DNA from: an uncultured Candidatus Saccharibacteria bacterium
GTDB taxonomy: Bacteria; Patescibacteriota; Minisyncoccia; Phycocordibacterales; SBAW01
DNA: 48,888 bases
Reading direction: 5' to 3'
NCBI GenBank assembly: GCA_964650645.1
Contig: CAZYUH010000001.1
Location: 705,202-754,089, forward strand
The notes under the pieces: generated by a model
The model's database searches: none
Seen by the model: the letters and a program-made list of their open reading frames with translations, nothing else
Told to the model about the DNA's origin: nothing
Shown: in pieces, positions 21,081 to 47,290 of the stretch
Numbering within the stretch: position 1 is the first letter of the stretch
How the letters are laid out: every line of letters begins with the position of its first letter
Program-made: the position numbers and the translations under genes

Positions 21081-21257
21081 TTTGATCCCTTTATCAATAG
21101 GCTAAGGATCGTTTGTACGGATCCGAAGTAAAAATACTACATTTGCTTGAAAAGTCTATTTCATGCCTTATTGCAGCCCCGCCAGGACGCCGCAGACCGG
21201 TAAAGGCGGCGCACAAGCACGAGCTGCTTGGATGAGTGGGCGACATTGAAACACATC

Positions 21258-21584
21258 TTATTTCTTAGCTTTCTTTTTCTTCGCCGGCAAAGACTTGGCA
21301 ATATCAAGCAAGATGTTTGGCAGGCTCTCCATCCTGGACAGCTGGCCTTCTTCCACCAAGTAATGGGGTTTTGCGCCGGGATACGGCTCGTCTTTTTCGC
21401 ATACGGATTCAAGATCCCGGCTTGCAGGCAAAACTTTTACGTACAACTGGTCGTCGCAAATAAGGGCCACTGCTTTGCCGTCTGCGTACAGCGCATACTC
21501 ACCGAATATTGCGAGAACAGAAAAATTCTTGGGATGCCGGAGCTTTTCCAAGATAAATTCGACTGCTTCTTTCCGGGTAGACAG
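21258..21584 (-). CDS. TfoX/Sxy N-terminal domain protein (start uncertain)
   Basis: FGEYALYADGKAVALICDDQLYVK and PYPGAKPHY. Family-like start (L)STRKE begins at CTG 21584; the track uses TTG 21608. Confidence 0.75.
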   Translation of the reverse strand: MSTRKEAVEFILEKLRHPKNFSVLAIFGEYALYADGKAVALICDDQLYVKVLPASRDLESVCEKDEPYPGAKPHYLVEEGQLSRMESLPNILLDIAKSLPAKKKKAKK

Positions 21585-21626
21585 AGACGATTCAAGAAAT
21601 TTCAGCAAATGACGCTAGGCCGCAAT

Positions 21627-21773
21627 GACGATATTGCAGTCAAGGAAATAGATATACGAAATTACGCTAAGTATTTATTACGAGAAGGAACAGATCTAGA
21701 AAAGCGAGAATTGCTTGGATGTTTGAAAGGTAATATTTTGTTATCTGAAAAAAAGATTCTATTAACAAAATAA
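21627..21773 (+). pseudogene. Probable 3' remnant of a large serine recombinase
   Basis: DDIAVKEIDIRNYAKYLLREGTDLEKRELLGCLKGNILLSEKKILLTK resembles, from recall, C-termini of Patescibacteria recombinase-family proteins. No own start; GC drops here; terminator follows. Confidence 0.5.
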
Positions 21774-21800
21774 AAACCACTCGACTGAGTGGTTTTTATT
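21769..21800. terminator. Bidirectional intrinsic terminator
   Basis: AATAAAAACCACTC-GACT-GAGTGGTTTTTATT, perfect 14-bp stem. Confidence 0.8.
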
Positions 21801-21836
21801 TCATATTCCTATGTTACTTATATCGCGAACTTAATG

Positions 21837-23363
21837 TTAGTAACTCATAAACTCCGTCACTTCACCATCATTACCGATTGCATAGATGATCCATTTCTCT
21901 GTCTTTGGTCCTGGCATTCCTGGAGAACCTGAAGGCATTCCAGGCAAGGCGATACCTTTGATGGCTGGTTTTTCTGCGAGCAACTTTTCTATTACCTCCA
22001 GTGGTATGTGCCCCTCAACTACATAGCCTCCAACTATAGAAGTGTGGCAGCTCTGTAGATTAGTTGGAACGCCGTACTGATCTTTGATAGCAGTAAGGTC
22101 TTCAACGTCTATAGCCTTTACTTTTACATCTTCACGTTCAAGGTACTCCACATAAACGTGACAGCAACCACACGTTTTTGTTTTATATACCGTCATCTCC
22201 TCACCCATAAGGGCAGTCTTCTCTTCGGAAACGCTTTGACCTTTCCAGATGCTTATACCATTCGGCTTACTGCCTACCGATATTTGAGTTATTTCCTTAC
22301 CTGTTTTTGTATCGACTACAGAGACAGTATTTCCTTCGAGGTTTGTGACATATGCCTTGCTATTATCGTCATTAATAACGACTCCGTGAGGGGCTTTCCC
22401 AACAGCAATGCTTTCAGTTATTTCTTTCGTTTTAAGATCCAGTTTGTACAGCTTGTTGTTTGCAGGTCGGTTCTGTAGAACCCCTTGATCTGCAATATAG
22501 ACGTAACGAGAATCTGAAGTCGGATAGAGTTGCACTGGTCCCTCTGAACCCTCTGGCAATGCTACATACGATACTGATTCGAGAGCAGTATCGTACAGAG
22601 CAACGCTGCGAGTCTCATACACAGACGCAGCTACATATTTACCATCAGGAGTAACCGCTGTCTGGACAACCGAACCGTTGAGAATTTTTACTTCTGTCGT
22701 TCCACTTGCGAGATCGACGACACCAAGACCCTTCCCGTCCATAAAGGCAACATAGGCAGTTTTTCCATCAGGAGAGAGTCGCATACCATGGGGACCGCTT
22801 CCTTCGGGTAGACTAATCTCTGTTTGTAGGAAATTGCTCGTATCTACTTTGTAGAGCTTATTTGTCTCCTGCGCCGCGATAAGTGCTATAGATCCGTCTG
22901 GGGTAAACACGACATGCGCCAGATGCTGACCACTTCCAAGCGGTATTCGTTTGACTATGGCGTCCTCTTGAGGGTCAATGACGATAACCTGATCCCCAGT
23001 GTCCATCTTCATTTCCTCATGTCCCTCATCGGCATATGCGGTAGGAATGAAAAGTGAAGTATGTACGTCATGCTCCTCCATTCCAGCATTAGCTGTTACC
23101 CAAACACTTTTTCCGTCGGGGGACGCCTGGACATTGTGCGGAAGATATTTCGTCTCAGTTTCTTGCTCAGTAAGATCAATGACTTTGATTGATTTGTTTG
23201 TGGCAGGGTCAATCACATTCACAGTGCCTTCTTCTTCGACTGCCACATAGATTTTCTCTGTAAGTGCATTTCCTGTTGAGGAAATGGGGTTATTCTTTGC
23301 AAGCAACGTAATGCCTACAAGTGCAAGGATTACAATCCCGCCTAATAGATATGCTTTCTTCAT
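21837..23363 (-). CDS. YVTN/YncE beta-propeller fused to a C-terminal DUF411 (CopG-like) domain
   Basis: Blades PHNVQASPDG, AHVVFTPDG, PHGMRLSPDG, APHGVVIN; C-terminal TCGCC, SCHTSIVGGYVVEGH, GIALPGMPSGSPGM. Confidence 0.85.
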   Translation of the reverse strand: MKKAYLLGGIVILALVGITLLAKNNPISSTGNALTEKIYVAVEEEGTVNVIDPATNKSIKVIDLTEQETETKYLPHNVQASPDGKSVWVTANAGMEEHDVHTSLFIPTAYADEGHEEMKMDTGDQVIVIDPQEDAIVKRIPLGSGQHLAHVVFTPDGSIALIAAQETNKLYKVDTSNFLQTEISLPEGSGPHGMRLSPDGKTAYVAFMDGKGLGVVDLASGTTEVKILNGSVVQTAVTPDGKYVAASVYETRSVALYDTALESVSYVALPEGSEGPVQLYPTSDSRYVYIADQGVLQNRPANNKLYKLDLKTKEITESIAVGKAPHGVVINDDNSKAYVTNLEGNTVSVVDTKTGKEITQISVGSKPNGISIWKGQSVSEEKTALMGEEMTVYKTKTCGCCHVYVEYLEREDVKVKAIDVEDLTAIKDQYGVPTNLQSCHTSIVGGYVVEGHIPLEVIEKLLAEKPAIKGIALPGMPSGSPGMPGPKTEKWIIYAIGNDGEVTEFMSY

Positions 23364-23367
23364 AGGC

Positions 23368-23763
23368 TTAATTGTTGAACCACGTTTGTCGCCATTCTCT
23401 CATCATTTCAATTTCACTTGTCTGTGCGTTAATAATGTCATTTCCAAGTTTTACGAGTTCAGGGCGCTTAGTCTTTTGAAGAAGCATCTCTGCCATATCT
23501 ACAGCTCCTTCGTGGTGAACAATCATCTCGTCAATAAATGCCTTCTCAAATTCTTCTCCTGATTTACCTTCTAAACCTGCTGTCATATTAGTCATTGTGT
23601 TTCCCATTTCGTGTGAGTTACCCATCATATGACTGCTTGTGTCGGTTATACCTGACATCATTGGGTAATCCATTTTTCCTGTTCCTAAGAAATATCCAAG
23701 AACAAGTCCCAGAATGAGGGTAATGATGCCGATAATAAGTAGATGTATATTTTTTGTTTCCAT
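23368..23763 (-). CDS. DUF305 ferritin-like (CopM-like) protein
   Basis: Met/His-rich linker; FIDEMIVHHEGAVDMA...IINAQTSEIEMM. Confidence 0.88.
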   Translation of the reverse strand: METKNIHLLIIGIITLILGLVLGYFLGTGKMDYPMMSGITDTSSHMMGNSHEMGNTMTNMTAGLEGKSGEEFEKAFIDEMIVHHEGAVDMAEMLLQKTKRPELVKLGNDIINAQTSEIEMMREWRQTWFNN

Positions 23764-23803
23764 AATTTTGTTTAATAGTTGCTAATAAAAGAAGTAGGAA
23801 AAA

Positions 23804-24211
23804 TTACGGGGCTTTGGGATGCAAAATACCTTGAGAGAATAGCTCTGTATATAAATCGGGAATATGGAACGTGAACCTGCGAGGTAATTCTTGAGAGTTG
23901 GATATTTTGGGCGGATCCAGTATGTCCTTTTTTATATACGTGTGGAGGGCAAGTCCAAGAGCTATAAGTAAAAGCAAGTAGGAAGCGATGAGTGTTAGAG
24001 GAACACTGAACATGCTTTGCCATACAGAAAGGTACTCAAACGGGTTCATTGCACAAATGACATGCTCTCCAAGCGTTATGGTGCATCCAGCTTGGTGTTC
24101 ACCGTGCGACATTTGAACCGCCGACAAAATGCCAAACCCACCTACCCATACAAATGCCACTAAGAGTATGCCGAGGAGGAGATATTTTGCTTTGTTAGTA
24201 AAAAATGACAT
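23804..24211 (-). CDS. Hypothetical membrane protein in the copper operon
   Basis: Two TM segments, MSHGEHQAGC...HVIC motif, C-terminal ELFSQGILHPK; 2-nt gap to copB. Confidence 0.7.
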   Translation of the reverse strand: MSFFTNKAKYLLLGILLVAFVWVGGFGILSAVQMSHGEHQAGCTITLGEHVICAMNPFEYLSVWQSMFSVPLTLIASYLLLLIALGLALHTYIKKDILDPPKISNSQELPRRFTFHIPDLYTELFSQGILHPKAP

Positions 24212-24213
24212 AC

Positions 24214-26259
24214 TTACATTCTATAATTTTTCAGGAGGGTTGCGTTAATCGCCACGACCACCGTACTTACTGACATCAGTACGGCTCCTACGGCAGGAGA
24301 TAAAACAATTCCGACACCAGCGAGTACTCCCGCTGCCAGTGGCAGGGCAAGAATGTTATAACCGCTTGCCCACCAGAGATTTTGGATCATCTTTCGATAG
24401 GTAGCTTTGGCAAGAGAAAGAATTACAACCACATCTCTTGGGTCGCTTTTTACCAAGACCACATCAGCGCTTTCTATAGCCACATCGGTTCCAGCGCCGA
24501 TAGCGATGCCAACATTGGCCTGTGCAAGAGCTGGTGCGTCATTGACCCCGTCTCCGACCATCGCCACCTTATACCCTTGAGCTTGGATTTCTTTTATTTT
24601 CTCTGTCTTCTCGTGTGGCAATACCTCTGCGTAATAGGTTTTGATACCGAGCTCCTTTGAAACACGTTCTGCAACACGCTTTGCGTCCCCGGTAAGCATA
24701 ATGGGTTCAATTCCCATTGCTTGAAGTTTTTGGACCACCTCCTTTGCTTCATCGCGAACCAAATCATCAAGAGCAATAGCACCTATAGGTAATTCGTTAA
24801 CCAAAACGAACACGACAGTCCGTCCCTCATCAATCAAACGTTCAACATTTTTGTTGTTTACCGTTATGCTCTTTCCATTCAAATACCCTGGACTTACGAC
24901 TTTGATTTGTTTTCCTTCTACAGTGCCCATTGCACCTTTACCTGGTATTGAGGAGAAGTTATTTACAGCAAGCTTTTTGCTTACCCGTTCTGCTATAGCT
25001 TTGGCTATCGGATGTTCGGAGTGTGCCTCTATTGCGGCAGCATAGGCAAGGATTCGATCCTCCTGTTCATTTCCCAAGGGCACAACTTCGGTTATACCGA
25101 ACTTTCCTTTAGTAAGAGTGCCTGTCTTATCAAAGACAACAGCTGTTATATTCCGTGCTTCTTCAAAAGCGGTTCTGTTGCGTATAAGCAAGCCTTTGCG
25201 AGCAGAAAGAGCTGTTGAAACCGAAACCACAAGCGGTATAGCAAGACCGAGTGCGTGAGGACAAGCTATGACAATAACAGCAATGGTTCGCTGAAGGGCA
25301 TACGCGAGATTTTCTGACGTAAAAAATGTCCAACCAAAGAATGTAAGTATCCCTGCGCCTATCGCAACAAACGTTAGCCACATCGCTGCACGATCAGCGA
25401 GTTTCTGGGTCTTTGACTTTTCTGCCTGTGCTGATGACACAAGCTCTATAATTTGCGAAAGATATGTGTCTTTTCCTACTTTCTGTATCTCTACTACGAT
25501 TGAGCCATCACTGTTTACAGAGCCTCCAATAACGGATTGTCCAGCAAACTTTTCTATGAGCTTGGTTTCTCCTGTAAGCATTGCTTCATTTACAGAAGTT
25601 CTTCCTTCAACAACAATGCCGTCAACTGGAATCTTCTCACCAGGCTTTACAAGAACTCTATCTCCGAGGGACAGATCGGCAACCTGAACATCTTCTGTCT
25701 CTCCGTCTTTTCCTAGCCGATGTGCTGTTGAAGGCATTAGCTTTGCTAGCTCTTCCAAAGCCCGAGATGCACCCATGACCGACCGCATTTCGATCCAGTG
25801 CCCAAGAAGCATAATGTCCACGAGCGTTACCAGCTCCCACAAAAGCTCCTCGCCGGGCAGGCCCGCAAACACAGCAATGCTATATCCATAAGCGGCAGAA
25901 ATAGCCAAGGCGACGAGCGTCATCATCCCCGGCTGTCTTGCTTTTACTTCATCATATAAACCTTTGAGAAAAGGATAGCCCCCATAAAAGAAAATGATTG
26001 AGGCGAGAATAAACCGAACATATACATCTCCTGAAAAGCCGATACCCTCTATACCAAAAAACATCTGGACCATCGGCGAGAGAACAAGTACAGGAATGGA
26101 GAGAATTAGAGAAATCCAAAACTTCTTTCTGAAATCCTCAACCATATGGGCGTGATGACCTTGATGGTTGTCGTGTGAATGTTTCTCTTGGTGGCTACTG
26201 TCCGTATCAGAGCAAGAGTGATCAGCAGGAGAATGTTTGTGATGAGAAGTATCGTGCAT
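24214..26259 (-). CDS. copB: Copper-translocating P1B-type ATPase, His-rich N-terminus (CopB-like)
   Basis: His-rich N-tail, CPH, DKTGTLT, TGE-type actuator motif (MLTGE), GDGVNDAPAL, YNILA, MSVSTVVVAINA. Confidence 0.92.
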   Translation of the reverse strand: MHDTSHHKHSPADHSCSDTDSSHQEKHSHDNHQGHHAHMVEDFRKKFWISLILSIPVLVLSPMVQMFFGIEGIGFSGDVYVRFILASIIFFYGGYPFLKGLYDEVKARQPGMMTLVALAISAAYGYSIAVFAGLPGEELLWELVTLVDIMLLGHWIEMRSVMGASRALEELAKLMPSTAHRLGKDGETEDVQVADLSLGDRVLVKPGEKIPVDGIVVEGRTSVNEAMLTGETKLIEKFAGQSVIGGSVNSDGSIVVEIQKVGKDTYLSQIIELVSSAQAEKSKTQKLADRAAMWLTFVAIGAGILTFFGWTFFTSENLAYALQRTIAVIVIACPHALGLAIPLVVSVSTALSARKGLLIRNRTAFEEARNITAVVFDKTGTLTKGKFGITEVVPLGNEQEDRILAYAAAIEAHSEHPIAKAIAERVSKKLAVNNFSSIPGKGAMGTVEGKQIKVVSPGYLNGKSITVNNKNVERLIDEGRTVVFVLVNELPIGAIALDDLVRDEAKEVVQKLQAMGIEPIMLTGDAKRVAERVSKELGIKTYYAEVLPHEKTEKIKEIQAQGYKVAMVGDGVNDAPALAQANVGIAIGAGTDVAIESADVVLVKSDPRDVVVILSLAKATYRKMIQNLWWASGYNILALPLAAGVLAGVGIVLSPAVGAVLMSVSTVVVAINATLLKNYRM

Positions 26260-26263
26260 ATAG

Positions 26264-26533
26264 TTATTTGCTTTGGGCTAACTTATATACCTTAAGAATT
26301 TCATTGATTGCTTTCCCTTCTTCTTTGCCTCGCATTTGATGCACAACATGCGTAGATAAGTGATGTTCCAGCATCACATTTTCTACGCTTCCCAATGCCT
26401 TTTTGATGGCATTGGATTGAGTGATGATATCTACACAATATTTCTCGCTTTCCACCATTTGCTGTAAACCACGCACCTGACCCTCGATGCGGCGCAGACG
26501 ATTTTGCAACTGCTTTTTTATGTCTTGCTTCAT
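26264..26533 (-). CDS. csoR: CsoR/RcnR family metal-sensing repressor
   Basis: RLRRIEGQVRGLQQMV, YCVDIITQ, MLEHHLSTHV; a CsoR-type operator sits directly upstream. Confidence 0.88.
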   Translation of the reverse strand: MKQDIKKQLQNRLRRIEGQVRGLQQMVESEKYCVDIITQSNAIKKALGSVENVMLEHHLSTHVVHQMRGKEEGKAINEILKVYKLAQSK

Positions 26534-26539
26534 ATCTTA

Positions 26540-26567
26540 AGTATACCCCTGTGGGGTATACGGTCAA
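26540..26567 (-). promoter_or_regulatory. Sigma70-type promoter overlapped by a CsoR-type operator
   Basis: Perfect palindrome GTATACCCC-TGT-GGGGTATAC (26541-26561); minus strand TTGACC-N16-TATACT-N6-ATG. Confidence 0.85.
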
Positions 26568-26728
26568 GCTCAGTTTCGTTAGTTGATACTGTACCTTATT
26601 CATTCTCCTCCACAGGAACGTGTAAAAGCAAAAAGCGCCCAAACCAGGCACTTTTTACCTATAAAAACCTTCCTTAGTTAATATAAGGCTATCGACGCGT
26701 CTCGTGCGCGATAACCTATCACGAGTTG

Positions 26729-26743
26729 GCTGGGAGACATGGA
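26729..26743. repeat. att core, distal copy of the tRNA-Gln 3' end
   Basis: Identical to 31418-31432; on the minus strand it continues ...TCTCCCAG-CCA. Confidence 0.85.
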
Positions 26744-26880
26744 ACCTCACTGCTCGCTTCGCTGCGCTTACGAAACCCTCGGTTTCGTAGACTTCCGACA
26801 CGGGGAACTCCCATTCCCCGACCCCCTCCCGGTTCAAATCCATGCCGCGGGCAACCCCGTTGCCCGCTTCTCCCAGCTTC
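26744..26880 (-). other. tRNA-linked palindromic module with a split antisense copy of the tRNA-Gln 3' end
   Basis: GCTGGGAGA-A-[GCGGGCAAC GGG GTTGCCCGC]-GG-CATGGATTTGAACC, followed by further hairpins (GGGGAA/TTCCCC, TACGAAACC/GGTTTCGTA). Confidence 0.7.
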
Positions 26881-26924
26881 AGCGCTTCGTATTCTAGCTG
26901 GGTGTATGGGACGATGTTGGAACC

Positions 26925-27431
26925 TTACTTTGTGCTTAAGCCCATTACCCGAGAGTAGTATGGCAAAATCTCTTGGGCTAGAGGCGCAAGATTTACTTTA
27001 TCAGCAGATTCAGCAAAAAGTTGGAATATAGGCCACAACTCTTGGGTTAGAGTTTTTACATCCCAAACTTTACTTTTTGGAGTACCGCTTTGTCTTGAAG
27101 TGGTAAGATGACCAACTTCCTTATCAGCCCGGGTCTTTGCCTCTGTCAAAACTTCACTTAATTGCGGCCTTACTTTATCCCAGGAGTCTTCCTTGTTAAA
27201 GAAGTCTTTCGCACATACGTCAGTGTCTCTAGAAGAGGCTGGATATAGGAAAGTAATCAGATTCCGCAAGTGTATTGCGTAAGATTCAACAGGCATATGT
27301 TGCAATCCGTTAGGAACTTTAAGCCCACGAATTATTGCATCAGTACCATTGAGTAACATTTGAACCTCATACCGTACATGTTCAGAAAAGTACTCGACAA
27401 GTTGTTTTTCCGTTAGGTCTTTTGTTTTCAT
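26925..27431 (-). CDS. Hypothetical protein, HEPN-like
   Basis: ESYAIHLRNLITFL and RADKEVGH (R-x6-H); all-helical appearance. Confidence 0.6.
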   Translation of the reverse strand: MKTKDLTEKQLVEYFSEHVRYEVQMLLNGTDAIIRGLKVPNGLQHMPVESYAIHLRNLITFLYPASSRDTDVCAKDFFNKEDSWDKVRPQLSEVLTEAKTRADKEVGHLTTSRQSGTPKSKVWDVKTLTQELWPIFQLFAESADKVNLAPLAQEILPYYSRVMGLSTK

Positions 27432-27781
27432 TGCTGAAGCGTAAAATTAAGACATCCGCAACCAGATTTGCATGGTATTTCCTTATTAAAGACAGGGATA
27501 CTTTGTCCTGGTTCAATCTTAGAAAATCCTTCTTTGTGCATAAACTTGGAGTGACCACACTGGCATTGTTGTTTCAAGGACTCTAAGTATTCATCTTGCA
27601 CAGATACATCTATCTCAACTATCTTTTCATTGTTCTCGCACACTTCGTTTACACATTGAAACTTTCTTTTACCGTCAAACTTTTGAGAAGGCTCTCCTTC
27701 AAGTTTTCGCATAGCAAAAGGGCCAATTTCTCTCATTACCTCATGGCAAACTTCGCAGGGCATTTCTTTCATAAATTTCAA
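27428..27781 (-). CDS. Double zinc-finger-like small protein
   Basis: CEVC...CVNEVC and CQCGH...H...CKSGCGC; ATGA-coupled to the next gene. Confidence 0.7.
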   Translation of the reverse strand: MKFMKEMPCEVCHEVMREIGPFAMRKLEGEPSQKFDGKRKFQCVNEVCENNEKIVEIDVSVQDEYLESLKQQCQCGHSKFMHKEGFSKIEPGQSIPVFNKEIPCKSGCGCLNFTLQQ

Positions 27782-27786
27782 TAACT

Positions 27787-29019
27787 TTAGGTTAACTTTT
27801 CGAATTTACTCGAGAGACTCTTTAGGTTATCTAGCAACTCGTCAAATGTAATAAACTCTATATTCTTGAACGACCTACGCAACAATCTAAAGTCTCTCTT
27901 TTTGTTATCGTTACTCTCCCACTCTTGAGTCTTCCCTATTATTAAAAAGGCTTTTGGCTTGAGAACTGAGAATGGAACCTTAGTTTGCTTTTGTAGGTAC
28001 TTTTCGAATCCCTCAACATTTTTTTCAAGAAAGAGAATGTATTTTTCAATCTGAGAAATTGCCTGCGAAGAGCTTCTTGAAAGGAAATAGTTATCATGAC
28101 TGGTGTCTATCCTTCTCGCAAAAATTTCAGTGAATGGTGTCTTTATTTCAAACACATCCAGGAATCCATATAAATCTATCCAGACAAAATCTGGTTTTTT
28201 AGCACCTTCTTCCGTTTTGGCGAAATTAACATCTGCTTCCCTTATCGACTCAATGTAATTTGAGTTAAAGAAGAAGACTTCCTCATGCAGAAACTTTTGC
28301 CACTGTTTTTCCGAGAAGTTTCTGTTTTTGATATGTCTTTCAAACTTCTTTATCACTTGGTCAAGAGTCTTCTTTCTTCCCTCAATGACAAGGTTCTCCT
28401 GCAAATACTCCAGAACTTGGTCATTTTCTGAGTTTATAGAGATGTATCTTTTAATAAAACCAGCGACAGCCTCATGATCGTCTTTATCAAGAGTGTTTAG
28501 GTTAATCTCAGTTAATTTCTTATTTGCACTTTCGTCACTTGATGCACTCTTGAATTCGTTAGGCAAAAAACGAGCAAGACGCTCTTGCACAACAGAATCT
28601 CTTCCTTTTTTTACCTCAGTTCCAAGGTCTTCAAGTAACTCTCTAAAATCTTTAAAAGAGAGACTGAGCGAAACATACTTAGGCTGATTCTTAAAGTAAG
28701 TCGAGCCATGACCACTCATAAATACACTTAGTCTGGTTTCTTTACCAAACTTATTTTTAAGGAAATCCAAAACGTGACTTCCACCAACTTTATTGACCTG
28801 TCTCTGATTAAAACCTCCTCCTGTCTTGTATAAAAATAGTCCTACCGGCTGCTGAGAAAATCCTTTAAAAGTTATTGTCTTTATACTAAACCTTTTAGCT
28901 ACAGACGGTTTGAAGTAGTAAATGAAGTTATCGTCTTGTTTTTTCCAGCCAGCAAGAATCCTCTTAGCCCTCTTTTTGGCTTTCTTTTTTGAGGACTTCT
29001 TTTTCTTCTTGGCTACCAT
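27787..29019 (-). CDS. sduA: Shedu (SduA, DUF4263) anti-phage nuclease
   Basis: EKQWQKFL, KPDFV, VFEIKTP, SQAISQIEKY, KPKAFLIIG, FRLLRRSFKNIEFITFDELL; TATACT 6 nt upstream. Confidence 0.9.
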   Translation of the reverse strand: MVAKKKKKSSKKKAKKRAKRILAGWKKQDDNFIYYFKPSVAKRFSIKTITFKGFSQQPVGLFLYKTGGGFNQRQVNKVGGSHVLDFLKNKFGKETRLSVFMSGHGSTYFKNQPKYVSLSLSFKDFRELLEDLGTEVKKGRDSVVQERLARFLPNEFKSASSDESANKKLTEINLNTLDKDDHEAVAGFIKRYISINSENDQVLEYLQENLVIEGRKKTLDQVIKKFERHIKNRNFSEKQWQKFLHEEVFFFNSNYIESIREADVNFAKTEEGAKKPDFVWIDLYGFLDVFEIKTPFTEIFARRIDTSHDNYFLSRSSSQAISQIEKYILFLEKNVEGFEKYLQKQTKVPFSVLKPKAFLIIGKTQEWESNDNKKRDFRLLRRSFKNIEFITFDELLDNLKSLSSKFEKLT

Positions 29020-29135
29020 GCGGGTAGTATACTCTTGTTCCTGAAAACTTCATCCGCCGGCGCGGGCGGCCATCCGAGGCGCCCTGCGGAGCTTCGTGCC
29101 GCGCCTAGCGGCATGAAGGGGCGGGGCTGCCCGCG

Positions 29136-29357
29136 CTAGCTAAAGGGTCCTTTGCGGATAAGAGTCTCTGCTTCTTTTTCTGCTCCTGGCTTCCGTGTAT
29201 TTTCTTCTATCTTCTCAAGCAAATTTACTATTCGATTTTGTTTCCAGTACCAAGTAAATATCTCTCGAACTAACAAAAAACCAATGAGCCAAAGAAATAG
29301 AATCGGCCAGTTATCAAAGAAGCTAATGATTTGTCGCGGCAATTCTAGGCTGTCCAT
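29136..29357 (-). CDS. Small single-pass membrane protein
   Basis: TM helix then REIFTWYWKQNRIVNLLEKIEEN. Confidence 0.65.
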   Translation of the reverse strand: MDSLELPRQIISFFDNWPILFLWLIGFLLVREIFTWYWKQNRIVNLLEKIEENTRKPGAEKEAETLIRKGPFS

Positions 29358-29389
29358 ATCTTAAAAAGTTACAGATAAAGCCGTGGACG

Positions 29390-29530
29390 CAAAAAGCCCG
29401 CCACGGGTAGAGACCGAAGTCTCTCGTACCAGTTTCCCGATACGGCAGGTAATGCAACCCCATGACGGGTTCTTTATGCATTACCTGACTTGTCGACCTT
29501 ACCTGGGGTTGCCAGGGTTAGGCCCTTTTT
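29390..29530 (-). promoter_or_regulatory. Putative structured RNA leader / attenuator
   Basis: GAAA-loop hairpin (29425-29444), UUCG hairpin (29409-29424), closing stem CCTGCC/GGCGGG plus T-tract, and an 11-bp stem (29446-29456/29477-29487) that overlaps the closing stem. Promoter TTGAAA-N18-TATAGT at 29547-29576. Confidence 0.5.
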
Positions 29531-29719
29531 ATTCAGTTGTGGCCCCACTATACCATCAGTTTTGCCAACATTTCAAAAAGCGTTTCCGAATACAAAAAGT
29601 GCTTGCCGGGGCGGTTTATGAGCGTAAAATTGTTAGTAAGTTCTGGAATAAAAGTCCCGTAAACACGCCTCCTTCGAGGGCAGAGGCAGAACCCACATTA
29701 AAAGCTCGTCTTTTCTTTT

Positions 29720-29932
29720 GTGGTTTATTCTGCCCCTCTAATACAAGAGACTATTTTCGTCTTTCAAGAAGAAAACGGCATACTTCTCACACCCGAGGAG
29801 GCTGTTATTGTTTTGGATGGCCTTTCTGGGTTGTTTTTGGCATATGCAGACCGAGCTGAGGCGACTCCACCCGCTTTAGCGGTGGAGTCGCACTCTATAG
29901 ACTTGATACTCCACACACTTAATGCTACTTAA
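29720..29932 (+). CDS. Small protein directly upstream of the recombinase
   Basis: GTG start; LIQETIFVFQEENGILLTPEEAVIVLDGLSGLFLAY; TTGCCG-N16-TAAAAT promoter at 29603-29630. Confidence 0.55.
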   Translation: MVYSAPLIQETIFVFQEENGILLTPEEAVIVLDGLSGLFLAYADRAEATPPALAVESHSIDLILHTLNAT

Positions 29933-29969
29933 ATTTATTTACTTTTAATTTCAGTGTATTTTAGAGCTT

Positions 29970-31478
29970 ATGAAATACTTCATTTACTGCCGCAAAAGCA
30001 CTGACACGGAGGACCGGCAGGTATTGTCCCTGGACTCGCAGGAAAACGAGCTTAAACGGCTCGCAGAGGCCCAAGGGCTCAAGGTTGCGGGGGTACTTCG
30101 GGAGTCTATGTCGGCTAAGGCTATAGGCCGTCCTGTCTTTACCCAGCTCCTCAAAGCTCTATCCTCTGGTAAAGCCGATGGAATTCTCTGTTGGAAGCTA
30201 GACCGTCTCGCCCGCAACATGGTGGATGGCGGCCAAGTCATGGATTTGCTCCAAAGGGGTGTAATCAAAGAAATTCGCACTTACGAATCAACCCACCTCT
30301 CCTCCGACAATGTCCTCATGCTCGCCGTCCACTTCGGCATGGCAAATCAGTACATCCGCGACCTGAGCATAAATGTTAAGCGTGGACTTAGAGCAAAACT
30401 AGAGCGTGGCGACTGGCCCAACAAACCCCCTCTTGGATATTTCAACGACAAAAACACAAAGCAAATAGTTATAGACCCCATTTCCAGCAGATATGTCGTG
30501 CGCGCATTTGAACTCTACGCAACAGGGAGCTATGGCATAGAAGACTTGGCAGACAAACTGTACGCCGAAGGACTACGGAGCAACCGAGGAGCAAAGATTC
30601 ACAAGTCCACTCTACACAAAGTTCTTCTTCGCTCGTTCTACACAGGGGTCATGGAGCGCGACAATCGCTTTTACAAAGGCAACCATGCTCCCCTCATTTC
30701 AAAGCAACTTTACGATAAGGCCCAAACCGTACTCTCGGGCAATGCACATCCCAAGCCCCAGCGTTTGTTCTTCCCTCTCAGAGGATTCCTGAAATGCGCT
30801 TCCTGTGGCTGTGCGCTTACTGCCTCTCTCAAGAAAGGCCATCAGTATTACTATTGCACCAATGGCAAGGGTAAATGCGACCAGCACAAGAGCTACCTGC
30901 GCGAGAACACCATAAACGCTATGGTGGCTGATTTGTTCGACTCCCTGCACTTCTCTGAGCGCAAGATTGAACTTATGTATAAAGCCGCTAAGGAAAGGTC
31001 AGAGCAGGAGGGCGGCCAAGAAAGACAGAACCTAAACCGCCTCCAGAACCTCTTAAACGCCCTCTCAGAGAAAGAAAGTCGCCTGTTAGATACTTTCGTA
31101 GCCGGTCAGATTCCTAAAGAGCTTTACGACCGCAAGGCGGGCGAAATACAGCATGAACGTCTAGACCTTACCCGCCAGATTCGGGAGGCTGAAAGTAAGG
31201 GAGATGTTTCTACTTTGGAACCGACTAAGCAAGTCTTTTTACAAGCCAGTAAAGCCAAAAAAGAGTTTTTGGATGGCGATGATACTAAAAAGCGCACTAT
31301 CGTAGAAAATCTACTTTGGAACCTTTCTATCGAAAACAAATCCGTGGCTCAAACACAATATAAAAGCCCATTTCACTTACTAGCAAATATCCCTAAAAAC
31401 GCCTCACTTTCAACAATGCTGGGAGACATGGATTCGAACCATGATTCACGCCTCCAAAGGGCGCTGTCCTACCATTAG
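29970..31478 (+). CDS. Large serine recombinase (resolvase + recombinase + Zn-ribbon + coiled coil)
   Basis: YCRKST (catalytic Ser), WKLDRLARN, PPLGY, CASCG...YYYC...C. The last ~20 codons are antisense to tRNA-Gln. Confidence 0.95.
   Translation: MKYFIYCRKSTDTEDRQVLSLDSQENELKRLAEAQGLKVAGVLRESMSAKAIGRPVFTQLLKALSSGKADGILCWKLDRLARNMVDGGQVMDLLQRGVIKEIRTYESTHLSSDNVLMLAVHFGMANQYIRDLSINVKRGLRAKLERGDWPNKPPLGYFNDKNTKQIVIDPISSRYVVRAFELYATGSYGIEDLADKLYAEGLRSNRGAKIHKSTLHKVLLRSFYTGVMERDNRFYKGNHAPLISKQLYDKAQTVLSGNAHPKPQRLFFPLRGFLKCASCGCALTASLKKGHQYYYCTNGKGKCDQHKSYLRENTINAMVADLFDSLHFSERKIELMYKAAKERSEQEGGQERQNLNRLQNLLNALSEKESRLLDTFVAGQIPKELYDRKAGEIQHERLDLTRQIREAESKGDVSTLEPTKQVFLQASKAKKEFLDGDDTKKRTIVENLLWNLSIENKSVAQTQYKSPFHLLANIPKNASLSTMLGDMDSNHDSRLQRALSYH
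31418..31432. repeat. att core, tRNA-proximal copy
   Basis: GCTGGGAGACATGGA inside the tRNA-Gln 3' half and the recombinase 3' end. Confidence 0.85.
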
Positions 31479-31489
31479 ACGATCTCCCA
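31419..31489 (-). tRNA. tRNA-Gln (TTG)
   Basis: TGGGAGA/TCTCCCA acceptor, GCGCC-CT-TTG-GA-GGCGT anticodon arm, GGTTCGAATCC T-arm; CCA not encoded. Confidence 0.95.
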
Positions 31490-43034: not shown

Positions 43035-44102
43035 TTATATAGAAAAGCTCCCCGGGTCGAAGGTGTTCTCGTCGCGCTCGCGCTCCTCGCGCGTGCGGTC
43101 GTCAAGCTCGGGGACGAGCTGCTCGGGCGCGGCGGGCGCGAGCAGGAGCACGGGAGCGCCTACAATGGGCGCCGCCTGCCCTGCGGCAGGCGCCGCGGAT
43201 GAGGGCGCTTCGCCCGCGCCGTTCTGCACCGGCGCGCTTTCTTGCGCGGGCGCGGCGCCCGCCTTCCCGTGCGCGAACCGGCTCGCCAGGCTCGCGAATA
43301 TCACGCGCAAGTCCTCCTCGCCCATGAAGTCGATAACGAGCTTGCCGCCGTTCTCCTTCGTCTCAATGGCCACGCGCGTGCCCAGCGCCTCGCCCAGCTC
43401 TTTCTCCATGTCCAAAATCTCGGGCGAGTACAAGTACTCCTTCTTGCGCACGCGGTCGGTGGCGATGCGCCGCGCAATGGCCTCCGTGTCGCGCACCGTG
43501 AGCCGCTTGAGCATCACCTCCCGAAAGAGCGTGTTCTGCTCCTGCGGCCGGTCGTTGAGCATGAGGAGCGGACGGGTGTGGCCCTCGTTTATGCGGCCCT
43601 CGGTAAGCGCGTCGAGCATCTCCTGCGGAAGCGCGAGCAGGCGGATGGAGTTGGAGACGTACTCGCGGCTCTTGCCCACCTTCTCGGCCACCTCGACATG
43701 CTTGAAGCCAAACTCCGAGACGAGCTGCTGGAACGCCTTGGCGCGGTCCACCGGGTTGAGGTCCTCGCGCTGGAGGTTCTCGACTATAGCGAGCTCGAGC
43801 TTGGTCTTGTCGTCATCCTCGGCCTCGCGGATGAGCGCGGGGACCGTGGCGACGCCCGCCAGCTTGCTGGCGCGCAGGCGGCGCTCCCCCGCCACCAGCT
43901 CGTACTCGGTCGCCAGCCCGCCGTCAGGCTTCTGCACCTCGCGGCGCGTCACGGTAAGCGGCTGGATGACGCCGTACTGGCGTATCGAGCGCGCCAGGTC
44001 GTTCAATTTCGCCTCGTCGAACTCGCGCCTAGGCTGGAACGGGTTAGGCTTTATCTTGTCGACCTCGACCCAGAAGATGGCGTTATTGTAAAACTGCGAC
44101 AT
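43035..44102 (-). CDS. parB: ParB/Spo0J chromosome partitioning protein
   Basis: NPFQPRREF, GVIQPL, AGERRLRA, ENLQREDLNP; TGC-TAGAAT 7 nt upstream. Confidence 0.93.
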   Translation of the reverse strand: MSQFYNNAIFWVEVDKIKPNPFQPRREFDEAKLNDLARSIRQYGVIQPLTVTRREVQKPDGGLATEYELVAGERRLRASKLAGVATVPALIREAEDDDKTKLELAIVENLQREDLNPVDRAKAFQQLVSEFGFKHVEVAEKVGKSREYVSNSIRLLALPQEMLDALTEGRINEGHTRPLLMLNDRPQEQNTLFREVMLKRLTVRDTEAIARRIATDRVRKKEYLYSPEILDMEKELGEALGTRVAIETKENGGKLVIDFMGEEDLRVIFASLASRFAHGKAGAAPAQESAPVQNGAGEAPSSAAPAAGQAAPIVGAPVLLLAPAAPEQLVPELDDRTREERERDENTFDPGSFSI

Positions 44103-44148
44103 TGGCGATATTCTAGCACGCATAGCCCCTTTGTTGGAAACGGGCGAT

Positions 44149-44229
44149 GCCGGAGTGGCGTAATGGTAGCCGCGCTCGACTCAAAATCGAGTCCCGCAAG
44201 GGGTGTGGGTTCAAGTCCCACCTCCGGCA
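44149..44229 (+). tRNA. tRNA-Leu (CAA)
   Basis: GCCGGAG/CTCCGGC acceptor, CTCGA-CT-CAA-AA-TCGAG, long variable arm, GGTTCAAGTCC; CCA not encoded. Confidence 0.95.
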
Positions 44230-44466
44230 CAGAGGGTAGCGATGTGCCGGAGAAGGCCATGCCGGTGCATGGCCTGCGGGAGGCTTGAAGGGCGGAGCGA
44301 TGTTTTGCACTTGCAAAACCGCGAGCCGGGGATGAAAGGCAAACTGCTTTGCCTTTCATCCGGTGCCGAAGGCAAGCGCCGATGCCGCCTTGCGGCAGGC
44401 GCTAGGTGGACGCGGCGCTTGGCTGGCGAGCAGGGCCGACTTGTGGTCAAGTCCCACCTCCGGCAC
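44211..44466 (+). mobile_element. 236-bp non-coding mini-element duplicating the tRNA-Leu 3' end
   Basis: TCAAGTCCCACCTCCGGCAC at 44211-44230 and 44447-44466 flanks a hairpin-rich insert. Confidence 0.7.
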
Positions 44467-44548
44467 TAAGCGAAAAGCAAAGAAGAAGGCGATTTCCATA
44501 ATCCGTGGTAATCTGCGCTCAGACGCAACCGGTTTGAAAGGGCTACAG

Positions 44549-45268
44549 ATGACCAAGCTCGTATTCGCATGCGACGTGAGCGACCTCTCCCTCGGGGAGA
44601 TGCTCATACGCAAGACCGCCGGGCATATCGATATAGTGAAGATAGGCCTCGAAGCCATGACTGCCGAGGACGGCGACGGGACGACCCTCGCGTCCAAGCT
44701 GCGCCGCTATGCCATCGGCAGGCAGCACCCCGTCATGTGGGACATGAAGCTCCACGATATAGAAAGCACGATGGCCAAGGCGGCGCGCAACATCGCAAAG
44801 CTCGGCTCGGATTTCCTTACCATCCACGCCGCAGCATGCGACAAGGCGCTCGCTGCCGTCGCTGCGGCCGCGGATGGGGTCGGGGGCGGCGCCATGCCGC
44901 TTGCCGTCACCGTACTGACCGATCTCGATGAGAGCCAGTGCTACTCGCGCTTCCACGCGACGCCCGATACCGCGGTCAGGCATTTCGCGAAGAACGCGCA
45001 CCGCCTGGGCATCCGCGGCTTCGTCTGCTCGGCCAGGGAGGCCCGCATCATCCGCGACTCCCTGCCCGATGCCTACATCATGACGCCCGGAATCCGCCCC
45101 CTGTGGGCGGTCGCCCGCGACGAGCAGAAGCGCGTCACAACGCCTGCGCAGGCGAAACAGGCCGGCGCCGACGCGATAGTGGTAGGCCGGCCGATATCGA
45201 AGCCGCCACCCTTCCACACCGAAGCCTCGGCGGCGCAAGCGATAAAGGAAGAGCTCGAGGCGGCGTAG
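44549..45268 (+). CDS. pyrF: Orotidine-5'-phosphate decarboxylase
   Basis: VFACD, VKIG, WDMKLHDIEST (DxKxxDI), LTIHA, AVTVLT, MTPGIR, IVVGRPI. Confidence 0.93.
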   Translation: MTKLVFACDVSDLSLGEMLIRKTAGHIDIVKIGLEAMTAEDGDGTTLASKLRRYAIGRQHPVMWDMKLHDIESTMAKAARNIAKLGSDFLTIHAAACDKALAAVAAAADGVGGGAMPLAVTVLTDLDESQCYSRFHATPDTAVRHFAKNAHRLGIRGFVCSAREARIIRDSLPDAYIMTPGIRPLWAVARDEQKRVTTPAQAKQAGADAIVVGRPISKPPPFHTEASAAQAIKEELEAA

Positions 45269-45287
45269 CCGCGAGCATTCAGAAAAC

Positions 45288-45315
45288 AAGGCCCGGCGGA
45301 GTACCGCCGGGCCTT
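45288..45315. terminator. Bidirectional hairpin between pyrF and pyrE
   Basis: AAGGCCCGGCGG-AGTA-CCGCCGGGCCTT, 12-bp stem. Confidence 0.7.
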
Positions 45316-45319
45316 TATC

Positions 45320-46006
45320 TTATCCGCCCGCCCTTTGGGGCAGCTCCCACCCTTCTTTTGACCACGATTCGTCCCGCGGATCCTTGAGCCAGCGCCGCAC
45401 GATGCGCTCGACCCCCTCGTCGAGCATGCCGTTTTGCGCGGCATAGTCCACTATCATCTCGCCGGTGCACAGCGCGTGCACGGAGTGGCCGACGATGTTC
45501 GCGTGGAACTCCGGCAGGCCCCAGGTATTGAGGATGAGCGTGTGCGCGACGCGCGCGCCCGCCGCCTCGAGCGTTTTCATGGCGGCCAGCGCGCTCTCGA
45601 AGGTAGAGGACATGTCCTCTACCAAGAGCACGCGCATGCCGTCGAGCAAGGCGGCGTCCCCGTCTATGAGGCCCCCGAGCCCGTGCCCCGTCTTCTCCTC
45701 CTTCTTTACCGTAAAGTGGGGCATTCCCATCTCGCGCGCCAGCGCGACCCCGTGCGGCACGCCGCCCGATGCGACCGACGCGACGGCGCCGTAGTCGTGC
45801 ACGAGGTCTTCCGTTTGGAACAGGAGCAGCTCTATGATCGCGCCCCATTCATCGGGATGCGACGGAAGCACGCGGTTGTTAATGTACGCGCCCGGCGACA
45901 GCACGCCCTGCTTGAAGCGTATAGCCTTGGGCGGCCTGATGCGCACCGCGCCCGCCTTGAAGAAGTACTCTGCGCTTGATAATTCTCCGAACACCGATAA
46001 GGGCAT
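45320..46006 (-). CDS. pyrE: Orotate phosphoribosyltransferase
   Basis: FKQGVLSPGAYINNR, VASVASGGVPHG, VKKEEKTGHG, PRPP loop LLVEDMSSTFES; GGGAG SD. Confidence 0.8.
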   Translation of the reverse strand: MPLSVFGELSSAEYFFKAGAVRIRPPKAIRFKQGVLSPGAYINNRVLPSHPDEWGAIIELLLFQTEDLVHDYGAVASVASGGVPHGVALAREMGMPHFTVKKEEKTGHGLGGLIDGDAALLDGMRVLLVEDMSSTFESALAAMKTLEAAGARVAHTLILNTWGLPEFHANIVGHSVHALCTGEMIVDYAAQNGMLDEGVERIVRRWLKDPRDESWSKEGWELPQRAGG

Positions 46007-46084
46007 CAAATATCTCCCTGTTTGCCCGACAGACTCACACGAAACTACCTTTATTTTTACTCGAAAGCAAGCTACAACTGAGGC

Positions 46085-46984: not shown

Positions 46985-47055
46985 GGGCGATTAGTTTAAT
47001 GGTAGAACAGCGGTCTCCAAAACCGCTAGCGAGGGTTCGATTCCTTCATCGCCCG
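46985..47055 (+). tRNA. tRNA-Trp (CCA)
   Basis: GGGCGAT/ATCGCCC acceptor, GCGGT-CT-CCA-AA-ACCGC, GGTTCGATTCC; CCA not encoded. Confidence 0.95.
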
Positions 47056-47255
47056 CATAAGACGCAACAACCTCCCCTGCGGGAGGTTTTGCGCTTATGC
47101 GGGAGGCAGAGCGATGTTTTGCACTTGCAAAACCGCGAGCCGGGATCGCGAAAGCTTTTTGCGACGGCAAAAAGCTATTCGTGATCGCAATAGGCATCCC
47201 GCGTATGCGAATTTCCAGCAGGAAATTATGCGTGGCCGATTCCGCCCCTCATGTC
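47052..47255 (+). repeat. tRNA-linked palindromic module sharing a 36-bp core with the tRNA-Leu element
   Basis: GAGCGATGTTTTGCACTTGCAAAACCGCGAGCCGGG is identical at 47109-47144 and 44295-44330; nested hairpins. Confidence 0.8.
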
Positions 47256-47262
47256 ACATACG

Positions 47263-47290
47263 AAAAAACCGCCCTGATGGGCGGTTTTTT
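47263..47290. terminator. Bidirectional intrinsic terminator
   Basis: AAAAAACCGCCC-TGAT-GGGCGGTTTTTT. Confidence 0.85.

Follow-up and report, generated by a model that had tools for sequence, protein, structure and literature searches.

The 48,888-bp stretch of DNA analysed here (the window) carries, between the chromosomal genes parB and pyrF, a tRNA-Leu(CAA) gene followed by an insert of 236 bp, which is our subject together with the family of similar units found elsewhere. The final 20 nt of the tRNA gene (TCAAGTCCCACCTCCGGCAC; 44211-44230) are repeated exactly at 44447-44466, where the insert ends, and the gene itself is intact. The repeat can be followed over 25 nt at 92% identity without gaps, or over ∼26 nt with a 1-nt deletion. 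We found no credible open reading frame (ORF) in the 236 bp; the overlapping ORFs are spurious, high-GC frames, and a public gene call of 47 amino acids (aa) on the minus strand has no Pfam match on record. The first-pass annotation of this DNA had described a small insertion without ORFs between two copies of the tRNA 3' end, and the exact repeat and the spurious nature of the ORFs bear this out.

The insert behind tRNA-Leu and two further modules in the window

The 216 nt between the repeats fold at -112.7 kcal/mol on the plus strand (z -4.2 against shuffles) and at -94.9 kcal/mol on the minus strand. Since DNA of high GC content readily forms folds and short repeats are frequent, a chance repeat, or a fixed local duplication without wider meaning, might be suspected. 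We consider this scarcely credible. An 18-mer of the repeat, with up to 3 mismatches, occurs at two sites only in the whole window against a chance expectation of 0.01, and no shuffle attained two matches; for the core pattern described below the expectation is 0, and the module recurs with covariation at hundreds of loci.

Read in the direction of the tRNA, the insert resolves into a series of parts (Table 1). The spacer that comes first is, unlike this Leu copy, a palindromic, terminator-like hairpin in most family members. The antisense acceptor arm behind it perfectly complements 44222-44231 (its counterpart in L004 is GTGCGCCGG; loci are cited by L numbers), and a hairpin, H1, splits the antisense copy exactly where its acceptor part meets its T-stem part. 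The following stretch reads as the antisense of the T arm: the T-loop TTCAAG, which is not palindromic, appears as CTTGAA, and perfect versions occur in relatives. The conserved core then consists of a short helix P1 (44291-44293/44325-44327), the 3-nt junction GGA, a hairpin P2 (44297-44308/44313-44322), GAG and finally GGGG. The CTGC loop of the 14-bp hairpin next to it matches the H1 consensus AACTGCTT (L064, L144, L157, L109 and others). Farther on, an antisense-acceptor-like GTGCCGAAGG (44363-44372, 9/10), a long imperfect hairpin (44370-44424) and a core-3'-like GCGAGCAGGGCC (44426-44437) make up a degenerate stretch that resembles the tRNA-Leu modules of L029 and L034, with which it has the motifs GAAGGCRAGCGC and GCGAGCAGGGYCGA in common. 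Because the parts of the insert map onto the family scheme, the second set in degenerate form, the 236 bp look like two stacked units, with the one that has the Trp-like core nearer the tRNA.

Nothing in the insert is as unusual as the antisense copy of the tRNA end. The first-pass annotation had overlooked it, along with the 10-bp inverted repeat I14 and the 9-bp hairpin I23 (44254-44275). The palindromes that it did name are all present: GTTTTGCA/TGCAAAAC falls within I8 (44293-44328), the 14-bp stem is I5, and GCCGC/GCGGC belongs to the imperfect 25-nt hairpin I2 (44370-44424). Its description of the interior as only palindromic DNA is correct for the hairpins and falls short in that these are the conserved, covarying parts of a recurrent module.

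A second copy of the core lies behind tRNA-Trp(CCA). It is 97.5% identical to that of the Leu module (47105-47144 against 44291-44330; blastn 39/40, E 1e-14) and deviates from the search pattern by one base. Despite the near-identical 40-nt cores, the arms and remaining hairpins of the two modules differ. Beyond its core the Trp module has two hairpins, one with a GACG loop (47144-47186) and one with an AGCA loop (∼47202-47235), and its sense arm (GATTCCGCCCCTCATGTCACA, 47238-47258) is degenerate; a terminator follows (47263-47290). Matches to the core pattern also turned up, unexpectedly, after the tRNA-Trp genes of L003 and L080, the latter from a strain 99.3% identical to the window's organism. 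Of 44 differences that separate the window from L080, two (47108 and 47126) are in the 40-nt Trp core; one of these is a position at which the Trp copy of the window is identical to the Leu copy, a hint of gene conversion between the Leu and Trp cores.

The third module of the 49-kb window stands behind tRNA-Gln and was found by looking for copies of the tRNA-Gln 3' end. Its arms are laid out as in the others, and its 86-nt interior is of another type than those of the Leu and Trp modules. It has the high GC content of the host and is flanked by two low-GC islands, one of which, a 4.5-kb recombinase island, separates it from tRNA-Gln.

A recurrent unit with a covarying core

We collected loci by a ParB-based search with one genome per species, which gave 79 loci, the best matches having 77-83% ParB identity. 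They belong mostly to Patescibacteria, or the candidate phyla radiation (CPR): Adlerbacteria, Paceibacterota, Kaiserbacteria, Yonathbacteria, Zambryskibacteria and others. A motif common to the window and to the inserts of four species, GAA-N-GSC-(GGA)-hairpin-GAG-SC-GGKG, shows compensatory changes, and the core motif pattern has one match in the window, where 0 are expected by chance. R1, a covariance model of the core, matched 21 places at E<=1 in the window and 80 related loci; the 18 places examined lie downstream of tRNA-Leu, -Trp or -Tyr on the same strand, with one ∼1.1 kb past tRNA-Glu. In 100 sources the R1 model had 82 matches.

Metagenomes were scanned with a two-gap pattern for one subfamily, which was found in at least 120 stretches. 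Among the 125 matches listed, 93 have a tRNA gene on the same strand at most 300 nt upstream, the usual distance being 45-80 nt; the others mostly come without upstream sequence, and five follow tmRNA genes. The matches listed cover 43 anticodon types (of tRNAs for Pro, Ser, Ala, Arg, Val, Phe, Glu, Ile, Cys, Lys, His, Gly, Gln, Tyr, Asn, Trp, Thr, Leu, Met and Asp), and in each module-tRNA case among them both arms fit the local tRNA. One pattern match, L092, was discarded as a false positive in GC-rich coding DNA. An origin from phages was also rejected: in 2.9 million viral contigs the same pattern had a single match, on a contig that looks cellular, and the pattern of a second subfamily had none. 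Of 125 tRNAs in the unbiased ParB loci, 17 (14%) have one or more perfect arms downstream; upstream, as a control, an antisense match occurs in 3/320 cases and a sense match in 2/320.

The plan of the unit is clearest at tRNA-Tyr in L004 and at tRNA-Ala in L089. In the direction of the tRNA, the gene is followed by a short spacer, mostly palindromic and terminator-like, and by the antisense of the acceptor 3' strand with the discriminator. The small hairpin H1, whose loop is often AACUGCUU, leads into a stretch that is antisense to the T-loop and the 3' strand of the T stem and closes with ...TCGAA. The core comprises P1 (3 bp), a 3-nt junction, the P2 hairpin, GAG, P1' and GGKG. A long hairpin, P3 (loops often GACG or AGCA), ends in GTGACC and is followed by the sense copy of the tRNA, which runs from C56 through the discriminator and behind which a terminator often lies. 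The arms are perfect to the local tRNA over typically 11-20 nt (5', antisense) and 17-20 nt (3', sense), and the palindrome of the spacer prolongs the pairing of the antisense arm with the tRNA end. The unit is 130-240 nt long and has no genes. A second type of interior (L169, L178, L208, L057), with the same arms and H1, ends in ACTGTYCCYGTARGGAAAGAT before the sense arm. Interiors thus behave as interchangeable parts.

Several readings of these parts were tried and dropped. The 5' arm might be a duplicated 5' half of the tRNA, which is disfavoured by its complemented T-loops (CTTGAA for TTCAAG) and by a count at non-Watson-Crick T-stem pairs, where the arm complements the 3' strand in 10 instances and copies the 5' strand in 3. 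K-turn, hammerhead and retron msr/msd readings of the core find no support in the sequence, and we make no such claim. A search of Rfam 15 at the gathering threshold, over the modules in the window and 20 loci, let only tRNA pass. Neither tmRNA, Y RNA, ribozymes nor other Rfam families matched at gathering or relaxed thresholds in the window and 32 module-bearing loci, and no sub-threshold family recurred consistently over the modules. Our literature searches found no description of the module family.

Supporting a structured core, 96.2% of the cells pair over 80 distinct sequences, and 13 of 14 pairs show double-sided changes; the observed covariation score was reached by none of 500 shuffles. 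A small hand-made alignment of the core, with double-sided changes at 8/14 pairs, gave the same picture. In 83 of 85 modules the strand in tRNA sense is the more stably folded of the two, the mean difference being 12.6 kcal/mol. Under a strand-neutral pairing rule, G:U pairs exceed A:C pairs by 158:20 in P3 and by 33:18 in P2. The arms, with 14 G:U against 13 A:C, have no strand bias and therefore seem to be held by tRNA identity, not by mutual pairing. Most likely the interior acts as a single strand in tRNA orientation, presumably an RNA read through from the tRNA gene.

Table 1. Positions of the insert, the modules and neighbouring features in the window
Feature	Position	Strand	Evidence or remark
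tRNA-Leu(CAA)	44149-44230	+	ARAGORN; Rfam tRNA 59.7 bits; 3' end 44211-44230 is direct-repeat copy 1
Spacer, tRNA to antisense arm	44231-44242	+	No terminator hairpin here; sequence and family comparison
Antisense acceptor 3' strand and discriminator, TGTGCCGGAG	44243-44252	+	Inverted repeat I14, 10/10
Hairpin H1, 9-bp stem	44254-44275	+	I23; most family members have H1 at the equivalent place
Imperfect antisense T-stem 3' strand and T-loop	44277-44289	+	CGGGA-GG-CTTGAA seen, GTGGGACTTGAA expected
Conserved core	44286-44333	+	R1 66.9 bits, E 5e-13; pattern match, 0 by chance; covariation
Perfect 14-bp hairpin, CTGC loop, GCAAACTGCTTTGC	44330-44361 (stem 44330-44343/44348-44361)	+	I5
Second, degenerate unit (putative)	44363-44446	+	I22, I2; assigned by eye, without model score
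Sense arm, direct-repeat copy 2 (putative displaced tRNA-Leu 3' end)	44447-44466	+	Exact repeat
tRNA-Trp(CCA)	46985-47056	+	Sister module follows
Second core copy	47100-47147	+	R1 68.2 bits; 43 nt past tRNA-Trp
Rest of Trp module	47144-47258	+	Homologous parts in L003, L037, L021
tRNA-Gln	31418-31489	-	
Third module	26729-26876	-	Behind tRNA-Gln; arm layout as others
Gln antisense acceptor, CTGGGAGA	26876-26869	-	
Gln H1	26868-26847	-	
Gln antisense T arm, GGCATGGATTTGAACC	26846-26831	-	
Gln sense arm, TTCCATGTCTCCCAGC	26744-26729	-	
parB	43035-44123	-	Upstream of tRNA-Leu
pyrF	44549-45268		Downstream of the insert
Low-GC island A	∼26897-31417		Large serine recombinase, LOOT RNA, Shedu (SduA), small ORFs
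Large serine recombinase	29970-31478		3' end overlaps tRNA-Gln on the opposite strand
LOOT RNA	29409-29524	-	Rfam RF03000, 73.7 bits against a gathering score of 46.4
Shedu SduA defence gene	27787-29019		
Second low-GC island	∼21100-26728		Begins directly after the Gln sense arm; copper/metal genes
CsoR-like repressor	26264-26533		
P-type ATPase	24214-26259		

Empty sites, stacks and the case for mobility

The tRNA-Leu(CAA) gene beside parB is conserved in nearly all ParB loci, and a repeat of its own 3' end within 300 nt was found in only four other species (L013, L042, L054, L067). The site is empty in the four closest relatives (L001-L004) and in ∼85% of all relatives. The first-pass annotation had proposed a search for such empty sites, and most relatives have them; the outcome that it named as speaking against mobility, an identical insert in all relatives, is not what we see. 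The further copies that it proposed to look for at other tRNAs are likewise present, at tRNA-Trp and tRNA-Gln in the window and elsewhere at the 43 anticodon types of the matches listed and at tmRNA genes.

The edges of the duplicated segment point to insertion at the DNA level. The left edge of the repeat is C56 in 61 of 61 scorable cases, which is in part a result of the search pattern; the right edge is variable and mostly lies 1-7 nt past the discriminator, in flank that is not tRNA. The boundary repeat measures 6-44 nt, with a median of 19. An encoded CCA is present in the sense arm and absent from the gene copy in 8 cases, against 1 case of the reverse, an asymmetry to be expected of a sense arm that is the displaced original 3' end, with the present end of the gene supplied by the cassette. 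A retroelement primer-binding site or a copy of mature tRNA was rejected as the source of the arms, because genomic flank bases are part of the repeats and of the antisense arm alike, and the arms follow the encoded sequence, not the post-transcriptional CCA.

Modules are also found stacked and displaced. Tandem stacks in L161, L202 and L064 have different interiors between near-identical spacers and arms. In L057 and L110 the module lies ∼1 kb from its tRNA with an ORF between them (NYN-like by eye in L057; 204 aa in L110); elsewhere the interval is typically 45-90 nt, which leaves no room for a gene. The tRNA cluster Cys-Leu-Lys-Leu is compact and module-free in L209 and L210, with gaps of 1 and 29 nt in its Cys-Leu and Lys-Leu pairs, and in L105 (7100-8470, minus strand) the cluster Cys-Leu(UAA)-Lys-Leu(UAG) has a module behind each of its four tRNAs. 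AT-rich, promoter-like stretches lie ahead of the next tRNA in the L105 cluster.

We therefore favour, at about even confidence, the reading that the Leu insert is one locus of a large family of miniature, gene-less cassettes with a structured core, mobilised in trans at the tRNA and tmRNA genes of Patescibacteria. A cassette would insert at the portion of a tRNA or tmRNA gene between T-loop and 3' end, in CPR bacteria of the Paceibacteria type. It would supply a replacement 3' end, from C56 to the discriminator with a few flanking bases, usually together with a palindromic or terminator-like spacer, and the original 3' end, pushed downstream, would become the sense arm. It would further carry an antisense copy of the tRNA segment, split by H1, and the interior with its P1-P2 core and P3. 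An activity supplied in trans would spread and stack the cassettes, and the target-matched arms would tie each one to its tRNA. The antisense arm might arise by fold-back synthesis at the palindromic spacer, it might be part of a folded single-strand mimic of the target, by analogy with the attP of CTX phage and the attC of integrons, or it might belong to a guide that pairs with both strands, by analogy with bridge RNAs. The non-autonomous element mobilised in trans of the first-pass annotation remains, in our judgement, the best reading, one that we put forward as probable behaviour of the family and not as an observation.

Several points weigh against it. We found no recombinase, transposase or reverse transcriptase in or consistently beside the cassettes examined, and neither an excised form, a circle junction nor a presence/absence polymorphism among near-identical strains; three contigs that are 99.3-99.6% identical all carry the Leu insert and are uninformative on strain polymorphism. 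No autonomous element with matching ends turned up in ∼1 Mb of loci, no whole-genome search having been made. To our knowledge, no integrase, transposase or MITE (miniature inverted-repeat transposable element) mechanism yields inverted copies of the target at 43 kinds of tRNA. Where different species have a module at the same tRNA, its interior is often of one subfamily, a pattern that long vertical inheritance with co-evolving arms explains as well as repeated insertion does. The R1 alignment from which covariation was scored is fitted to its model, part of the G:U excess in P3 is fixed by the search pattern itself, and in most members a terminator-like hairpin stands between tRNA and module, which makes transcription of the interior uncertain.

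The main rival, which we find possible though doubtful, is a resident, vertically inherited non-coding RNA: a small RNA scaffolded on the tRNA and co-transcribed with it, with a function in the cell. Its arms would pair as an acceptor/T-like helix, H1 would stand where the tRNA body branches, and RNase P/RNase Z could excise and stabilise the interior. Such an RNA would account for a module that always has the orientation of the tRNA and a fixed short distance from it, for the covariation and tRNA-sense strand bias of the interior, for H1 exactly at the acceptor/T junction, for the terminators that often follow the sense arm, for modules inside tRNA clusters, and for the presence of one interior subfamily at the same tRNA across genera (tRNA-Tyr: L004, L042, L055). 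It sits less well with the distribution, since arms occur at only ∼14% of tRNAs in unbiased loci and orthologous loci are patchy, and tandem stacks, swappable interiors and ∼1 kb of intervening DNA look cassette-like. The flank bases in the repeat and the CCA asymmetry point to insertion at the DNA level; the arms, lacking a G:U bias (14 vs 13), are not apparently selected for pairing; a generic acceptor-like helix need not copy the neighbouring tRNA; and a terminator-like spacer often lies ahead of the module.

If the units are cassettes, their arms could themselves be guides, a proposal that we rate as unlikely. The RNA or single-stranded DNA (ssDNA) of a cassette would pair with both strands of the tRNA gene, where a recombinase or nuclease provided in trans would act, a mode of targeting like that of bridge RNAs or of the folded attP of CTX phage and attC of integrons. 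Equally unlikely in our estimate, cassettes would then be programmable, nucleic-acid-guided insertion units with arms rewritten or selected for each tRNA, a new class of guided element in CPR. Both arms match the tRNA DNA nearly perfectly, their mismatches lack a G:U bias as expected if each arm must match DNA, the interior is structured, strand-specific and scaffold-like, the arrays, in which the arms stay constant and the interiors vary, are like those of cassettes, and the spacer palindrome extends the pairing of tRNA end and antisense arm. The arms nevertheless cover one segment of the target, where those of IS110 bridge RNAs cover adjacent ones, and a boundary repeat of 17-25 nt is not known from those systems; we identified no partner enzyme and saw no circular or ssDNA form, and the likeness is one of analogy only.

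The window also allowed us to examine whether the Leu insert could be a decayed remnant of an integrase island, either a deletion scar or something like a cis-mobilizable element (CIME). A direct repeat of the tRNA 3' end is the classic mark of island integration, and a recombinase island stands beside a similar module at tRNA-Gln, both in the window and in L208, where the arrangement is the same. The first-pass annotation accordingly saw in the Leu insert the tRNA-Gln island minus recombinase and cargo. The likeness of layout is real; the derivation fails, since the recombinase island has with the tRNA-Gln 3' end a common core of only ∼5 nt (CAGC) and its closest homologue, L211, lacks a module. 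The L211 island ends in GGGTTCCAATTTCGTACCAGACGGCCAGC and passes directly into host DNA. The window's island ends in GGTTCCAACATCGTCCCATACACCCAGC, with the motif seen in L211 (GGTTCCAAYWTCGT...CCAGC in both), after which come a spacer and the antisense arm of the Gln module. Because of the short core at the tRNA end and the module-free L211 homologue, the serine-recombinase island is separate from the modules and independent of them; it was probably inserted between tRNA-Gln and a pre-existing mini-cassette. In a blastn search of the Leu insert against the window only the Trp core matched, leaving the arm layout as the sole likeness to the island. A tblastn search with the window's recombinase matched only 29970-31475 and L011, with no homologue near other modules. 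A compact, covarying architecture at >100 loci cannot come from independent random deletions, and the strong covariation, the constancy of that architecture and the target-matched antisense arm together exclude the deletion scar that the first-pass annotation had offered as an alternative; a remnant of any kind we regard as very improbable.

Homologues of the serine recombinase number >3,600 at E<=1e-20, and in all six distinct homologue loci fetched it overlaps tRNA-Gln identically. A Rep-like gene (PF23343) precedes it in 4 of 5 distinct homologue loci, with restriction/defence genes upstream; the Rep-like gene of the homologous islands was not found in the window, where the LOOT RNA lies just upstream of the recombinase gene, at the place of the Rep-like gene in those islands. 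The main text of the 2017 paper with LOOT's motif set contains no discussion of LOOT. We considered the LOOT RNA as the module common to both sites and rejected it: it is part of the recombinase island and is not similar to the Leu insert. The second low-GC island also carries DUF305 and a DUF411/beta-propeller protein; we found in it (∼21100-26728) neither a recombinase nor a tRNA fragment at the far end. The sense arm of the Gln module may be a secondary attachment site for this copper island. A gene for an ATP:guanido phosphotransferase (arginine-kinase/McsB-like; 19932-21080, minus strand) lies at the edge of the low-GC region.

Around tRNA-Leu, the gene order beyond pyrF is a phosphoribosyltransferase-like gene, miaA and tRNA-Trp. 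Several relatives have miaA a few bases after tRNA-Leu (comparison of L001, L004 and L031 with window 44467-46084), and the window has the module, pyrF and the phosphoribosyltransferase-like gene between the two; given these interposed genes, the region behind tRNA-Leu is a hot spot of gene content. In eight relatives (L003, L008, L016, L020, L027, L030, L041, L046) tRNA-Leu(CAA) is inverted relative to parB, lying on parB's strand just upstream of it.

Relation to known systems

Genes for tRNA and tmRNA are classic landing sites of mobile DNA, and the known users are kilobase-sized and bring their own integrase. What we describe is a gene-less, covarying unit of 130-240 nt at the same site, after 43 anticodon types among the matches listed, in a major and poorly understood radiation. 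If mobile, the units would be a new kind of miniature cassette, raising the question of how an antisense copy of the target is made or selected, and they may point to a recombination or guide system. If resident RNAs, they would form a new and abundant class of tRNA-linked structured RNA in CPR genomes. Sense arms add extra copies of tRNA 3' ends, directly after one of which, at tRNA-Gln, a copper-resistance island starts, and the modules will confuse island-finding software based on repeats of tRNA fragments.

Integration of islands at tRNA genes is classically marked by a direct repeat of the tRNA 3' end, and Williams in 2002 reportedly classified the sublocations of integration in tRNA and tmRNA genes, the T-loop included. 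Like the cassettes, islands and prophages at these genes target the 3' part, restore the end of the gene and leave the displaced fragment as a direct repeat; the repeat starts in the T-loop and can pass the gene end, and tandem accretion occurs at the regenerated site. The cassettes differ in their length of 130-240 nt, in having neither integrase nor genes, in their antisense copy of the target and structured core, and in their occurrence at many different tRNAs within one genome. Measured as an integrase island, the Leu insert has the boundary repeat and the restored gene, and it has no internal integrase or recombinase, there being no credible ORF. Genomic islands at such genes are also the subject of the Islander database paper (PMC4383910).

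MITEs and REPINs are non-autonomous, hairpin-forming repeats mobilised in trans, for example by RAYT transposases. They resemble the cassettes in being small, ORF-less and multi-copy, with inverted-repeat arms ∼100 nt apart that can form a long hairpin, and in standing in intergenic DNA after genes, presumably mobilised in trans. Their arms have one sequence per family and serve one enzyme, whereas cassette arms differ from tRNA to tRNA and equal the target, and we know of no autonomous partner of the cassettes. In place of the short, fixed target-site duplication of a MITE, the cassettes have a repeat of 17-25 nt with a variable right edge.

The attC sites of integrons and attP sites of the CTX type are strand-specific folded recombination structures, and integron cassettes are short, sometimes gene-less, and stand in arrays. 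Our cassettes may resemble them: arrays occur in L161, L202 and L064, and a strand bias is seen in the interior, though not in the arms. Their hairpin stem imitates a double-stranded target and has an extrahelical feature on one strand, a place that H1 would take in the cassettes. The anchor of the cassettes is a tRNA gene, not attI or dif, and their arms, unlike those sites, copy the target. Motifs of attC are discussed in PMC5737381.

With tRNA-like RNAs (the tmRNA domain, YrlA, mascRNA and viral 3' tRNA-like structures) the modules have in common a closing helix of acceptor and T stem, a side branch at the place of the tRNA body, and a discriminator, sometimes with CCA, at the 3' end. Unlike them, the modules have a ∼100-nt interior in place of the T-loop and match no Rfam tRNA-like family, and their 5' strand exactly complements the 3' strand instead of copying the tRNA 5' strand (10 vs 3). 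The bridge RNAs of IS110 elements cover the left and right halves of the target, and the system leaves a 2-nt core. They too are structured non-coding RNAs, of ∼150-200 nt, with segments that match both target strands. The modules, unlike IS110, come without a DEDD recombinase gene, there being no ORF in the Leu insert and intervals of 45-90 nt elsewhere; their arms lie on one target segment, and their boundary repeats are long. We file the module family as new, with an architecture far from that of described families, and by kind among the small non-autonomous insertions at tRNA genes.

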